Source of the DNA: a virus
Lineage: Duplodnaviria > Caudoviricetes
Strand: one strand, 5' to 3'
Length of the DNA stretch: 55,034 bases
IMG/VR virus record: IMGVR_UViG_3300022074_000051
Span: 1 to 55,034 of that record
The notes below the pieces were generated by a model. The model was given only the letters and a program-made list of their open reading frames with translations, was not told the origin of the DNA and searched no databases. How positions within the stretch are numbered: position 1 is the first letter of the stretch; the number at the start of each line of letters is the position of its first letter. Made by a program: the position numbers and the translations under genes. Shown here piece by piece: positions 9,183 through 13,353 of the stretch.

Positions 9183-10463
9183 TTATCCTACAAATATTTT
9201 AAGTGGTGTTTTACCAATCACCTTTTCTGAGTTTTCCGACATTTCAACATCCGTTGCAAGGAGTTTAGAATAAGTCATTTCTTCCAGATTCTTAGTCAAC
9301 TCTTCTCTTAGAGCTGCTTGTTCTTCTTTGGCTTGATTTAGAAGGTCACTTGCGTTTAAAGATATTTGGTCTCCGGGTATCGGTACGTTTCCTCCGAACT
9401 TGCCTCTAACTTGACCAAGAGTCTCCTTTGACAAAGCAAGGGCGAACCTTCTAATCCACTGCTTACCCATTGAATTTATACTTTCATATGGGAGGTTTTC
9501 AAACGGAATTGTGTTCATATTATTAACACCGTCTATACCAACATCCTTTTCATCAGACCAGATGTCTTTGTCTTCAATCGTGAACCTAAACCAGAATTTT
9601 TCTGGTGATACGCTGGAAGGCTCAGGGTATAATCTAAGTTTATTATCAACAATCTCATACGAGAAGTGAGAAGTCCTAGTATATAGGTGATCTTCATACG
9701 ACATAGCTTGAAGCTTGTTTTGCCAAGCTGGTATAACTTGAAACGTTGAATCGTCTGCGTATTGTCCGTAGTTGTGAAAGTCTCCTACGACATTAAGGCC
9801 ACCATAGTATCCATAGAACCTCCACATTTGTCTTGGAGTCACGTAATATACTTGTCTGATCTTGATTCTCTTATTGTTTTCTAGCTTGTTATAATAAGGA
9901 AAAGCTGCGTTATCGGCATCAAAAGCCGAGGAAGACACTATGTTTTGCAGGTCATAATCTTGAACTCCTGCAACACGGTCAAATGACGCGCTGTAAATGG
10001 GTGTTGTGCCTCCGATACCAGCTTCAGTAGCAAATGTATCAGCAATGCGATAAGATGTCTCAAATGAGAACTTAGGATATTTTAAAGCGTAATCTTGAGG
10101 CCCATCAGTAACTTCGCCTCGATGATTAAAAGAGCCGGTTTCAGAACCTAACGCCGAACCGAGAACATTTTTGGTTTGGTGAATATTAATGATGTATGAA
10201 TATTCTAAACAAGCTTCTTCATAAGCAGCAAAAACTGAACCACTCGTAAGCTCAATATCTAATACATCTCCACCCAAACGTTTAAATGTAAATGCAACCT
10301 GAGCGACTGCTCCGGTAACAAAAGAAGCAGATCCAGAATAAGCGCCGATTGGGCAAGCATCAGTGATTTCTGATAAGGCTGCTGTTGCTCCATTAAAAGA
10401 AACAGTTTTTGGTAATGTGATGGCTGATTGAGTTGATACTGGTGTTAAAGTGGGTAATGACAT
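9183..10463 (-). CDS. Neck (adaptor) protein, gp13-like
   Basis: RLGGDVLDIELT, WIRRFALALSKETLGQVRGKF..IPGDQISLNASDL..AKEEQAAL, and a C-terminal PLKIFVG. Confidence 0.8.
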   Translation of the reverse strand: MSLPTLTPVSTQSAITLPKTVSFNGATAALSEITDACPIGAYSGSASFVTGAVAQVAFTFKRLGGDVLDIELTSGSVFAAYEEACLEYSYIINIHQTKNVLGSALGSETGSFNHRGEVTDGPQDYALKYPKFSFETSYRIADTFATEAGIGGTTPIYSASFDRVAGVQDYDLQNIVSSSAFDADNAAFPYYNKLENNKRIKIRQVYYVTPRQMWRFYGYYGGLNVVGDFHNYGQYADDSTFQVIPAWQNKLQAMSYEDHLYTRTSHFSYEIVDNKLRLYPEPSSVSPEKFWFRFTIEDKDIWSDEKDVGIDGVNNMNTIPFENLPYESINSMGKQWIRRFALALSKETLGQVRGKFGGNVPIPGDQISLNASDLLNQAKEEQAALREELTKNLEEMTYSKLLATDVEMSENSEKVIGKTPLKIFVG

Positions 10464-10484
10464 TCATTAAACCTCCGGTCTCAA

Positions 10485-10492
10485 TAAATAGT
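10485..10492 (-). promoter_or_regulatory. Candidate late promoter ACTATTTA
   Basis: Between a terminator and the GGAGG SD of the neck gene. Confidence 0.65.
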
Positions 10493-10499
10493 TTTCCTC

Positions 10500-10533
10500 A
10501 AAAGAAAAGCCCCAAGCAATAAATGCAAGGGGC
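10500..10533 (-). terminator. Intrinsic terminator with UU/UU internal loop
   Basis: GCCCC-TT-GCA-TTTAT-TGC-TT-GGGGC followed by TTTTCTTTT. Confidence 0.75.
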
Positions 10534-10569: not shown

Positions 10570-10722
10570 TTATTCTTTTGAAGCTTCCGCTTTTTTCTTT
10601 GCAGCTGCCTTTTTCTTTGCAGCAGCTTCGGCTTTCTTTTTAGCCTCGGCAGCTTTAGCTTTGACCTTTTGGGCCTGGGCTTTGGCTTCTTGTTTTATTT
10701 TCATTCTTCTACGTCCGGACAT
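10570..10722 (-). CDS. 50-aa Lys/Ala-rich basic peptide (histone H1-tail-like)
   Basis: Below the ORF-track cutoff. AAGGAG SD, then MSGRRRMKIKQEAKAQAQKVKAKAAEAKKKAEAAAKKKAAAKKKAEASKE*. Confidence 0.75.
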   Translation of the reverse strand: MSGRRRMKIKQEAKAQAQKVKAKAAEAKKKAEAAAKKKAAAKKKAEASKE

Positions 10723-10761
10723 TGTTTACTCCTTGTGAAATTTTACTAGACATTGTTTTTA

Positions 10762-11349
10762 TTAAAAGGTTCCAGCAACAGGATCAACAAACCCATGAAT
10801 GTAAATTAACAATTTACCGGCGGTAAATTCAGCAGAGGTATCAGCTGCACCTTGACAGATGTACAAATGTTTACCGGATAATGAGTTGTCATCAATGGGT
10901 GCTGATGTGTCTTCCCCTTTTGCTGAAAGAGCGGTCAGAATTGATGTTGCTCCACCAGCTTGAGTTCCTGCTCCACCGGACGCGGACTTTCCAGCTGTGT
11001 CATTACCAAATTCCAAATCAATGTCAGCAGGTCCACCAGTAGGCGCTTCTGTCATAATTGCGCGGACTTCAGTAATAATTCCAAAATTAGCTTCTGTTAA
11101 CTCCGCAACATTAGCTAACTGATCATCTTTTCCAACTGGTGATCTATCACCGTTGGCACCGGTTCCGGAACTAATAATACCTCCAACACCCAAATCAACT
11201 GCAATCTCAGTGATTATTTCATGTCCTTGTCGATGCTGAGTTGCATACAAAATAGCATCAGCAATTCCAGGTCCAGATCCTAAAGCAATCTTTTGACCTT
11301 TTTTCTCTAAACTAAACAGTCTTTTACGACCTAATCTTCTACTTCCCAT
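10762..11349 (-). CDS. Hypothetical protein with Arg-rich N-terminal arm, possibly head decoration
   Basis: AAGGAG SD; MGSRRLGRKRLF start followed by an acidic, beta-rich body; directly downstream of the major capsid gene. Confidence 0.65.
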   Translation of the reverse strand: MGSRRLGRKRLFSLEKKGQKIALGSGPGIADAILYATQHRQGHEIITEIAVDLGVGGIISSGTGANGDRSPVGKDDQLANVAELTEANFGIITEVRAIMTEAPTGGPADIDLEFGNDTAGKSASGGAGTQAGGATSILTALSAKGEDTSAPIDDNSLSGKHLYICQGAADTSAEFTAGKLLIYIHGFVDPVAGTF

Positions 11350-11373
11350 AATATTTCTCCTTATGTTATTATG

Positions 11374-11461
11374 GACTCGTCCTCTGGTTCGTTTCTACCA
11401 GCCCCATTCCGGTAGAGACAGTGAGCAGGGGCCTCGCTCAAAGGAGACCAGAATTCAAGTC
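11374..11461 (-). ncRNA. Candidate structured leader RNA (three-way junction, complementary loops, anti-SD)
   Basis: Nested helices GACTTG/CGAGTC and TTCTGGT/ACCAGAG enclose hairpins TGAGC..GCTCA and TCTACCGG..CTGGTAGA. The loops carry GCCCC and GGGG(C). Confidence 0.55.
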
Positions 11462-11465
11462 GTAA

Positions 11466-11473
11466 TAAATAGT
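11466..11473 (-). promoter_or_regulatory. Candidate late promoter ACTATTTA
   Basis: Between the capsid terminator and the structured leader. Confidence 0.65.
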
Positions 11474-11479
11474 TTCTAG

Positions 11480-11513
11480 AAAAGAAAAAGCCCCAAGTCC
11501 GAAGACAAGGGGC
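11480..11513 (-). terminator. Intrinsic terminator after the major capsid gene
   Basis: GCCCC-TT-GTC-TTCG-GAC-TT-GGGGC followed by TTTTTCTTTT; cUUCGg tetraloop. Confidence 0.8.
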
Positions 11514-11544
11514 ATTTCGTTATTGGCTATTAGCTAATCAGAGA

Positions 11545-13353
11545 TTAGTTAGAACCTTCTTCTCCAAGAAGTCCTCGGACAAGAACGATACCGTACATGT
11601 CAGGACGAACCATCTTCTTCGCATAGCGAGTCATGACGCCCTTACGAGGTACAAAATCCTCTGTTCCGAAGATTGTTGGAGTGGTCTGTAGTGGCACATA
11701 AGGTGCATAAACATAACCAGACTCAAGGAAAGAGTTTCCTCGACGTCCAACAAGGATAGCAGCTCTTGGGAAGTAAGGATCAACGATAACGTCGAACTTA
11801 CGGCTAAGAGCACCGACCTTAACAGCTCCAATGTCACCCTTATCAGCATCAGCAGTTACGTTTGCACGGAACCCACTGGTGAATTCAAGAATGTTAGCAA
11901 CTTCAGGAGAACAAACTACAAAGTTAGCTCCACCACGAAGTGTCTTTCTGTGGATCTGAGCAGAAACATCATTGATGGTTTCAATGAGAGTCTCATACCA
12001 TTCGGAAACAGTTCCAGTGAAGTCAGGAGCAGCCGAAGATGCACCAAGTTCTTGACCAGTTTCTCTGTTAACAAAGAGTCCAGGAGAACGAGACCAGTAA
12101 TAAGTTGCAGCAGTTGCGCCGTTTACAAGGTCAGCAAGAATCTCACGGTCAATCTCAAGAGCAATTTGCTCTGAAAGGATTGAAGTCAACTCAACCTCAG
12201 CATCCAAGTTGTGGTATGCGTTAAGGTCTTGTCCCAACTCAGGAGTCCACTTAGCTTTAAGCTTTTTGGTCTGAGCTGTGATCGCTGTTGAATCAACCTT
12301 GATGTCGATTTCTGGAATGTTTGCATTCTTTTCCAATTCGAAAAGATCACCAACAACCGCACCAACAGTCGAAGAGTTGTCAATTTGATCTTTAACTGGG
12401 TATGTAAGTTTGTTCATAGCAATATCACCAGAGTCTGATGTGTTTCCAGCAGTAACAGTTCCACCTGTAAAAACGTAACGAACAGCTTTCAAAGTGGTTG
12501 CAGCATCAGCAGCAGAAGCCAAAGAGGTCAAACGACGAATTTGTGTGATTGCCGCTCCAGCAGCAACAATTCGAGCTTGCGCTTCGGTTGCATCAAAGAT
12601 GAACGCAGAAAGGTTATCAAAATCAGGATCACCCTCAGCAGCAACGTGGTCTGCCTCTTCAATATCAACTACTATAACACCCTGTGAAGAGTCAGTAATT
12701 GCTAGAAGATCTGGGTCAAATTTAATAAGCTTTTGGTTAGCTTCGCTAACTGCGCCGTCAAGGGTGAAAGCAGCTTTAACTTGATATCCGTTTGCATCTC
12801 CAGTAACTTCAGCGTTGTTACTTCCAGATGGTGAGCCATATGCATATCCGACCATACCAGAACGCCCAGGTCCTCCAAGGTCTTCTTTGCTAGAGCCAAT
12901 CAGCGAGACACCATCGATAACACCAGCACCAAGCTTGTCAGTACCATAGATGGATTGAGTTCCACCTTGTGTGTTTCCAAAGCGACTACCTGAAACACTT
13001 GATCCGCCCTCTTCGTCACCATAAGTGAAGTCAAGGAAGAAGATCAGTCCAGAAGGCAAGCTCATGGGCTGAACGCTTACAAGTTCATTTGCGATAAGTC
13101 CGGCGAATACACGACGAACGATTGGAAAAGCAACAGCAGCGAAACCTTCAACGTCACCAGCTCCCAAAGAGGAAGCCTCACGAAGAAGTTCTTTAGCTTG
13201 GTTTTCCAAGAGACGAGCCATTGAAGACTGTTGTCTTTGAGTGGTCAATCCCTCAAGTAGTCCTGTTTGAGACCACTTTTCAAGAAGAGCAGCGCCCTCC
13301 GCTTTCATATCACGGTTAACGATGCCTTCTGTCAATTTTTCAATAATAGACAT
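11545..13353 (-). CDS. gp23: Major capsid protein, T4 gp23-like
   Basis: PIVRRVF..LIANELVSVQPMSLPSGLIFFL, KLKAKWTPELGQDLNAYHNLDAEVELTSILSEQIALEIDREI, GYVYAPYVPL, PRKGVMTRY. Confidence 0.97.
   Translation of the reverse strand: MSIIEKLTEGIVNRDMKAEGAALLEKWSQTGLLEGLTTQRQQSSMARLLENQAKELLREASSLGAGDVEGFAAVAFPIVRRVFAGLIANELVSVQPMSLPSGLIFFLDFTYGDEEGGSSVSGSRFGNTQGGTQSIYGTDKLGAGVIDGVSLIGSSKEDLGGPGRSGMVGYAYGSPSGSNNAEVTGDANGYQVKAAFTLDGAVSEANQKLIKFDPDLLAITDSSQGVIVVDIEEADHVAAEGDPDFDNLSAFIFDATEAQARIVAAGAAITQIRRLTSLASAADAATTLKAVRYVFTGGTVTAGNTSDSGDIAMNKLTYPVKDQIDNSSTVGAVVGDLFELEKNANIPEIDIKVDSTAITAQTKKLKAKWTPELGQDLNAYHNLDAEVELTSILSEQIALEIDREILADLVNGATAATYYWSRSPGLFVNRETGQELGASSAAPDFTGTVSEWYETLIETINDVSAQIHRKTLRGGANFVVCSPEVANILEFTSGFRANVTADADKGDIGAVKVGALSRKFDVIVDPYFPRAAILVGRRGNSFLESGYVYAPYVPLQTTPTIFGTEDFVPRKGVMTRYAKKMVRPDMYGIVLVRGLLGEEGSN

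Follow-up and report, generated by a model that had tools for sequence, protein, structure and literature searches.

A long leader behind the capsid gene of an uncultured T4-like phage

We analyzed a 55,034-bp fragment of an uncultured virus (IMG/VR record IMGVR_UViG_3300022074_000051; hereafter the window), ~30% complete by CheckV, in which a long untranslated leader lies between a major capsid protein gene and the gene for a 195-amino acid (aa) protein. Comparison of homologous sequences confirms this leader as a real, conserved, folded RNA with a 5-bp kissing interaction that locks the loops of helices P2 and P3. We cautiously lean toward reading it as a cis-acting 5' untranslated leader of ~112 nucleotides (nt) that limits translation of the gene after the capsid gene by occluding its Shine-Dalgarno (SD) sequence.

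Nearly all long open reading frames (ORFs) of the window are on the minus strand, and the sequencing runs that contain the stretch carry labels of marine, seawater or viral metagenomes. The upstream gene (11545..13353, minus strand) encodes a gp23-like major capsid protein of 602 aa (Pfam PF07068 Gp23, E 6.7e-74; PHROG 138 major head protein, E 5.5e-72). Since its closest cultured relatives, from Flavobacterium phage immuto, Microcystis phage Mel-JY01 and Rhodothermus phage RM378, are only 41-47% identical across 57-71% of the protein, the window virus is, as judged by this comparison, a distant, uncultured branch of the T4-like phages. A terminator-like hairpin (11513-11490) and a U-run (11489-11485), together spanning 11485..11513 on the minus strand, would close the capsid gene transcript. 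The hairpin folds at -18 kcal/mol (z -4.96, 0/200 shuffles as good) and was confirmed by folding, a simple terminator scan having failed to flag it because its stem has two U-U mismatches; a GC-rich hairpin and T-run are found at the same place in relatives.

The motif ACTATTTA follows at 11466..11473 (minus strand). The window holds 13 copies of it, all on the minus strand and located between 2143 and 40562, compared with 2.88 +/- 1.65 expected (0/100 shuffles reach 13), and it is kept as CTANTTA in 77/77 aligned homologues, whose selection itself required the motif. We take it to be the probable late promoter of these phages. At 9 of the other 12 copies an SD and ATG follow after 15-33 nt, whereas the distance from 11473-11466 to the ATG of the 195-aa gene is 116 nt, so the unusual length that an earlier sequence-only reading of the window had pointed out is borne out. 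Copies of the motif often stand right behind a terminator-like hairpin. A 34-nt stretch comprising the terminator hairpin's end, the spacer and the motif recurs with 86% identity at 10483-10516 (minus strand), ahead of the next gene (9183-10463), and this terminator-promoter cassette therefore appears to be reused between late genes.

When the minus strand from 11350 to 11461 was folded, the minimum free energy (MFE) structure was the same three-way junction that the sequence-only reading had drawn, with all helices and both complementarities where that reading had placed them. The whole structured domain (11374..11461, minus strand), in which P1 encloses P2 and P3, is supported by MFE folds and by compensatory changes in subtype B (defined below). 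P1a (GACTTG/CGAGTC, 11461-11456/11379-11374), which is supported family-wide, is separated by a 2x2 internal loop from P1b (TTCTGGT/ACCAGAG, 11453-11447/11388-11382). P2 (TGAGC/GCTCA, 5 bp, 11440-11436/11426-11422) forms a hairpin at 11422..11440 (GAGGCCCCU) with a 9-nt loop, L2 (GAGGCCCCT), and P3 (TCTACCG(G)/(C)TGGTAGA, 7 bp, 11416-11409/11401-11394) forms a hairpin at 11394..11416 in which an invariant G-U pair closes loop L3. The kissing-loop pseudoknot joins GGGGC of L3 (11401..11405) with the complementary GCCCC of L2 (11432-11428). A pyrimidine tract, UCUCCUU, in the P1-P2 junction J1/2 (11441..11447, minus strand) constitutes the candidate anti-SD: as the earlier reading stated, TCTCCTT at 11447-11441 is the exact complement of AAGGAGA at 11362-11356, which reads as the SD of the downstream gene (11356..11362, minus strand). 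The ATG at 11349-11347 opens the 195-aa ORF. Because P1 starts 4 nt downstream of ACTATTTA in the window, and 3-6 nt past the motif in relatives, it probably lies at the transcript's 5' end or close to it.

The thermodynamics of the window sequence are unconvincing and do not by themselves establish the structure. Compared with shuffled sequences, the folding energy had a z of -1.39 for 141 nt (16/200 as good), -1.73 for 129 nt and -2.08 for the 92-nt core (6/200 as good). A 152-nt contig in one metatranscriptome matches 11330-11443 and departs from the window within the coding sequence; it is evidence of neither transcription nor RNA ends.

Stems and kissing loop covary among homologous leaders

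The 195-aa protein led to two related viral contigs, in which the leaders have changed yet complementary loops. Using the C-terminal half of the capsid protein, we found at least 598 relatives and kept the best 80 loci, a choice in which the RNA played no part. A subsequently built covariance model (R1) detected the leader in 12 of these 80 loci, one copy in each, and once in the window. A degenerate DNA pattern matched at least 119 stretches, and a second pattern that left the junction tract free matched 120. Overall, 120 distinct leaders were obtained from IMG/VR viral contigs, each with the promoter-like motif upstream and an SD and ATG downstream as its context. The patterns fixed parts of J1/2, L2 and L3, making letter invariance there partly a matter of construction; two free loop positions and the covariation of the stems were not fixed by them. 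We aligned 77 distinct leaders, which are related to one another (alignment A1), and these fall into a majority subtype A (65 of 77) and a minority subtype B (12 distinct sequences, window included).

P1, P2 and P3 are kept in all 120 homologous leaders, and RNAalifold found the three helices independently on the alignment of 77, on which the following measurements were made. With the loop-loop pairing included, 98.7% of cells hold standard pairs, compared with 84.5% in column shuffles, and 194 cells show double changes, compared with 46.8 in shuffles (0/500 shuffles reach 194). When the partners were slid by 1-3 columns, pairing fell to 29-47%. The structure is thus beyond chance, since the covariation is far above both shuffles and slid registers. 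By helix, compensatory changes occur at 3/4 pairs of P2 (helix 2), where 99.0% of cells are paired, and at 4/7 pairs of P3 (helix 4). Within subtype B, 99.7% of cells pair and seven pairs are compensatory (five in P1b, one in P1a and one in P3); its P1 has 13 pairs, six of them compensatory, with 99.4% of cells paired. P2, P3 and the loops are invariant within subtype B, and their support comes from the whole family.

The loop-loop complementarity proposed by the sequence-only reading also covaries. The two variable L2/L3 positions are Watson-Crick in 120/120 leaders and occur in four combinations (CA/UG in 95, CC/GG in 12, GG/CC in 10 and CG/CG in 3), the CA/UG count being inflated because the second pattern searched for the CA type. 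Among pattern matches outside the family context, 4/35 are complementary at these positions, a share close to the expectation of 1 in 16. The leaders have many G-U pairs, among them the pair that closes P3 in 77/77; because these pairs fit only the minus strand, we place the structure on the minus-strand mRNA. The covariation in homologous loci that the earlier reading had proposed looking for is therefore present, with stems and loops far above shuffles.

Complementarity between the junction tract and the Shine-Dalgarno sequence

The J1/2 tract reads UCUCCU in 12/12 leaders from the capsid-derived set, which was found without reference to the RNA. Among the 90 distinct CA-type leaders retrieved with the tract left free, 73 carry UCUCCU, and the other 17 have all-pyrimidine tracts (UUCUUC in 7, CCUCCU in 4, UUCUCC followed by G or C in 4, UUCUCU in 1 and UUCUUU in 1). 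In all 120 leaders examined the tract is complementary to the SD, with a mean duplex energy of -9.9 kcal/mol (-11.7 to -6.1) compared with -5.4 +/- 0.16 kcal/mol for shuffled tracts. Taken together, these comparisons indicate that the anti-SD:SD complementarity noted in the earlier reading is conserved; the two strands show no covariation signal, as detailed below, and their pairing is a proposal.

Predicted two-state folding and a proposed mechanism

Each of the 77 aligned leaders was folded under two constraints, one that kept the SD unpaired and one that imposed the tract-SD pairs. Relative to the SD-free fold, the SD-paired fold had a median energy difference of -0.1 kcal/mol, and the two were within 3 kcal/mol of each other in 59/77 leaders; when 7 leaders were folded without constraint, the SD-paired form was the MFE structure in 2/7. 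Right behind P1, subtype A leaders have a perfect palindrome with three bases in common with the P1 3' strand, and this palindrome is predicted to form a further hairpin, P4. P1 is present in 55/65 and P4 in 0/65 of the SD-free subtype A folds, and in the SD-paired folds P1 is present in 0/65 and P4 in 37/65. The P1 and anti-SD:SD states are accordingly predicted to be near-isoenergetic in subtype A. Subtype B leaders, the window included, have no P4.

The palindrome has features of its own. Examples lie at 1457-1470 of L009 and 3189-3202 of L074, two of the homologous loci, and the window is without one. Each of its three variants is self-complementary through the centre, beyond what a hairpin requires, and it occurs a single time in a complete 195-kb genome. 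In subtype A it could point to RNA-RNA dimerization or to a dimeric binding protein.

We infer from these models that the leader switches between states. It would be transcribed from its own late-promoter-like motif, and the J1/2 tract would pair with the SD ~80-100 nt downstream, blocking ribosome binding. In the ON state proposed for subtype A, P1 would be closed and the SD free; in the OFF state P1 would be open, the tract paired to the SD, and the palindromic P4 formed from the P1 3' strand. Because P1 is transcribed before the SD, we prefer time as the trigger: P1 would form first, each new transcript would give a burst of translation, and the leader would then refold to the closed form. 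A protein or metabolite that stabilizes one state is a less likely trigger. In subtype B, to which the window belongs, P1 has 13 bp and there is no P4; pairing of the tract with the SD would there require a pseudoknot with the junction still folded, and repression may be weaker or may work differently.

Several observations weigh against SD occlusion. Tract and SD are both nearly invariant across leaders, and no covariation between them was found in the 120 leaders: matched partners average -9.89 kcal/mol and permuted partners -9.82 +/- 0.07, with 34/200 permutations as good. The CCUCCU variant (4 leaders) loses one pair, and the SD shows no compensating change. Matches of at least 7 nt to AAGGAGAA are found in 25/60 relatives without the leader and in 10/13 with it; since a strong SD is common without the leader, a pyrimidine tract would match the SD whatever its role. 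Among the subtype B leaders, 11/12 have a nested SD-paired fold that is 1.7-16.5 kcal/mol less favorable than the P1 fold, the exception being L202 at -4.4 kcal/mol. The window itself stands at +5.2 kcal/mol, and this qualifies the earlier proposal of an undescribed cis-acting translational switch, of which a conserved, structured minus-strand RNA at a single cis position is the part that stands. Neither the kissing loop nor any pseudoknot enters the energy model, and because the sequences are related the tight energy balance does not amount to 77 independent observations. Many relatives have simple 5' hairpins at the same place, which fits a plain mRNA-stabilizing role as well.

Much of this evidence also bears on a constitutive 5'-terminal structure, which would protect an abundant late mRNA from 5'-end-dependent decay or fix its translation level without any switching, the pyrimidine tract having its role in tertiary structure or in the binding of ribosomal proteins and not in pairing with the SD. 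The probable base-pairing of the 5' end, with P1 starting so close to the promoter-like motif, would suit such a role, as would the simple hairpins that relatives lacking the leader have immediately behind this motif, the strong preference of subtype B for the closed P1 fold and the missing anti-SD:SD covariation. A plain hairpin would suffice for it, yet conservation extends to the kissing-loop junction, to the SD-complementary tract and, among subtype A leaders, to a palindrome overlapping P1, and we regard a purely constitutive role as distinctly unlikely.

The downstream gene and the possibility of an effector

The gene that the leader would regulate (10762..11349, minus strand) encodes a 195-aa protein with a basic N-terminal arm, MGSRRLGRKRL. 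Its AlphaFold2 model (predicted local distance difference test score, pLDDT, 84.9) consists of an N-terminal helix and a jelly-roll body. The protein has no Pfam or PHROG match and no PDB profile match, and tblastn against cultured phages returned none. A Foldseek search of the PDB gave nothing at E <=0.001, only generic jelly-roll and cupin folds, and the BFVD matches were uncharacterized phage proteins only. The top VIA-align neighbors were capsid chain H of cyanophage Pam1 (Z 7.2), the cement protein of Helicobacter phage KHP40 (Z 7.1) and capsid chain J of Ralstonia phage GP4 (Z 6.6), all three below the tool's meaningful Z of 8 and in the noise range, and a protein atlas gave a Phage_cement_2 lead at 0.76, below its trust level. 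Based on its position, basic arm, variable body and these weak structural matches, the 195-aa protein is probably a capsid accessory (cement or decoration) protein.

The downstream proteins have in common the N-terminus MG(N/S/K)RR(L/I/M)G(R/A)(K/R)RL, and their bodies differ, with complete ORFs of 149-373 aa. Codons 2-6 are nearly fixed at synonymous sites (GGA in 49/54; AGA at codon 5 in 54/54; TTA at codon 6 in 28/30 leucines), and the codons after them vary freely. The leader and the first codons (the first 11 in the window, 11317-11349) appear before very different bodies as one traveling module, making them a recombining module in front of a highly variable capsid-linked protein. At seven loci (L015, L023, L031, L058, L067, L075 and L081) a different conserved leader occupies the same place after the capsid gene. 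It has a variable 5' hairpin, a second hairpin and, immediately ahead of a G-rich SD, a conserved A/U-rich block, and the proteins behind it begin MG(T/S)KR(V/I)GLAR; it may represent a second structured leader family for the same gene.

The linkage of the leader to a basic N-terminal peptide, MG(N/S/K)RR(L/I/M)G, ahead of varying protein bodies is one reason to consider an effector-sensing switch, a possibility that we consider rather unlikely. The kissing-loop junction would then be a putative aptamer or protein-binding site that shifts the balance between P1 and anti-SD:SD pairing, with a metabolite, the product's own arginine-rich N-terminal arm or the capsid protein as candidate effectors. 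The architecture resembles that of translational purine riboswitches, near-isoenergetic states would suit a small binding energy, and unpaired purines are conserved in both loops (G-R-G in L2, fixed by the search pattern, and G-A-R in L3, not fixed by it). Set against this, the leader/N-terminal codon linkage is expected from simple adjacency, Rfam yields no aptamer match, and the expected site of a pocket, strands J2/3 and J3/1, is not the same from one subtype to another (e.g. UAGAAAG, UUUGAAG, UUGAAGA and ACUG), the loops and the tract being shared. A common small-molecule pocket is unlikely because these junction strands differ.

In its most far-reaching form, which we consider unlikely, the leader would be a sensing riboswitch class of abundant ocean T4-like phages that gates a capsid accessory protein by a host metabolite or by the protein's own arginine-rich arm. 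If so, virion composition would be tied to the state of the infected cell, and the leader would give T4-like phages their first case of a late virion gene under riboswitch-type control. Should an effector exist, the leader would be an orphan riboswitch in phage late gene control.

Placement, copy number and novelty of the leader

In every case the element sits downstream of the promoter-like motif and upstream of the SD/ATG belonging to the gene that follows the gp23-like capsid gene. Beyond the single copies in the 55-kb window and the 12 relatives, R1 gave a single strong match in each of four larger records and none in a fifth relative. One of the four is a complete genome of 195,459 bp with terminal repeats, and it too holds exactly one strong match. 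Second matches to R1 were only weak ones on the opposite strand, on the palindrome (E 0.05-1), and the search by this covariance model for extra copies or a regulon found none.

This placement also bears on whether the region acts as a leader at all. It could be released as a stable small RNA that works in trans or in virion assembly, as pRNA does, or it could be a DNA-level element; the three-way junction with loop-loop pairing recalls phi29 pRNA, and all three variants of the subtype A palindrome keep their self-complementarity across the centre. Such a role is very improbable. The G-U pairs, including the P3 closing pair in 77/77 leaders, rule out a double-strand DNA reading of the stems, and the palindrome is not a repeated operator because it has a single occurrence in the complete genome. 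Loop pairing is intramolecular, the domain is joined to an SD/ATG in every case, the simple scan finds no terminator between domain and SD, and there is no pRNA match in Rfam.

We return to the favored reading, SD occlusion by a cis-acting leader, with the question of whether such an RNA has been catalogued. At the gathering score, Rfam 15 had 0 matches in the whole window and 0 in the 12 homologous loci. At E up to 10, the interval 11200-11650 gave 8 weak matches, none on the element and the best on the terminator hairpin, and the L009 leader gave one 10-bit match only, the element itself being unmatched. The Infernal-type Rfam comparison proposed by the sequence-only reading thus matched no described Rfam family to the element, and the statement that the leader has the conserved core of neither purine riboswitch nor pRNA agrees with Rfam 15. 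A blastn search with 10700-11700 against 50,697 phage records found no relatives, and the canonical CA-type pattern, which covers a single variant, had 0 matches in 185,579 prokaryote species genomes (one genome per species). The leader is, on these comparisons, a distinct family within a known kind, translation-controlling structured leaders.

No description of the motif turned up in the literature covered, which did not include the candidate lists in the supplements of PMC10690425. That study (Fremin et al. 2023) lists more than ten thousand unnamed structured RNA candidates from IMG/VR and other viromes; its main text, in the passages covered, describes no such motif, and its candidate list may include the leader. 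For pelagimyophages, PMC7029224 reports that no riboswitches were found. With at least 120 sequence variants in marine viral contigs, the leader is widespread, in a phage group without a cultured member, for which the nearest capsid protein from a cultured phage is 45-47% identical. It is distinctive for its purine-riboswitch-like shape, for an anti-SD inside the junction and for unusually clean loop-loop covariation, and it provides a model, compact and open to test, for the way in which large DNA phages might set the dose of a virion protein after transcription.

Comparison with known systems

In purine riboswitches, P1 encloses P2 and P3, whose loops pair; the element lies in the 5' untranslated region, and the 3' strand of P1 can be used in an alternative structure. 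The translational adenine form of this class (RF00167) is the closest to the leader, which is alike in its junction, its P2-P3 loop pairing, its 5' untranslated position and its shared P1 3' strand. However, the leader's junction strands are longer and not conserved across subtypes, and its SD-complementary tract lies inside J1/2 rather than in a separate expression platform. Neither 11200-11650 of the window nor 1340-1510 of L009 matched RF00167 at E up to 10. Membership in the purine riboswitches was rejected, the conserved core and loops of that Rfam model being unmatched.

The SAM-III riboswitch (SMK box) has anti-SD:SD pairing as part of its regulatory fold and exerts its control at translation. 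The leader is alike in having SD pairing within the fold and in its proposed translational control, whereas fold and hosts differ and Rfam gave no match. Like phi29 pRNA, the leader is a phage RNA with a three-way junction and paired loops. The pRNA is free-standing, and its loops pair between molecules into a ring on the packaging motor, in contrast with the leader, whose loops pair within one molecule and which is fused to an SD/ATG in a T4-like genome. Identity with a phi29-type pRNA was rejected, as no Rfam pRNA match was obtained and the element is always followed by the gene's SD and ATG. Hammerhead and other small self-cleaving ribozymes were also rejected: they gave no Rfam match, and the strand joining the kissing helices varies between subtypes.

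A further comparison is with the autoregulatory leader of T4 gene 32, which PMC10690425 mentions. It resembles the leader described here as a pseudoknotted 5' leader of a T4-type phage with translational control of the downstream gene. Its fold is plainer, a simple H-type pseudoknot where our leader has a kissing-loop three-way junction, and protein binding is known for it.

The closest documented parallel to the proposed working of the leader is the maturation-gene leader of MS2 and other leviviruses. As PMC4615214 describes it, an upstream complementary sequence pairs with the SD there and closes a multi-arm structure, this pairing being delayed by a transient hairpin. The two systems differ in that the MS2 leader belongs to an RNA genome that folds during replication and the leader here to the mRNA of a large DNA phage. 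The MS2 arms have no kissing loop linking them, and the long-distance SD pairing of MS2 covaries (PMC4615214), a signal that the leader here does not show. Both have an upstream SD-complementary sequence, structured arms between it and the SD, and a virion protein gene downstream, that of the leader being a probable assignment. In MS2 the earlier competing structure leaves a short window for translation (PMC4615214), and the same is proposed here for the phage leader. We offer the levivirus comparison as a likeness in how the two leaders may work, and not as homology.

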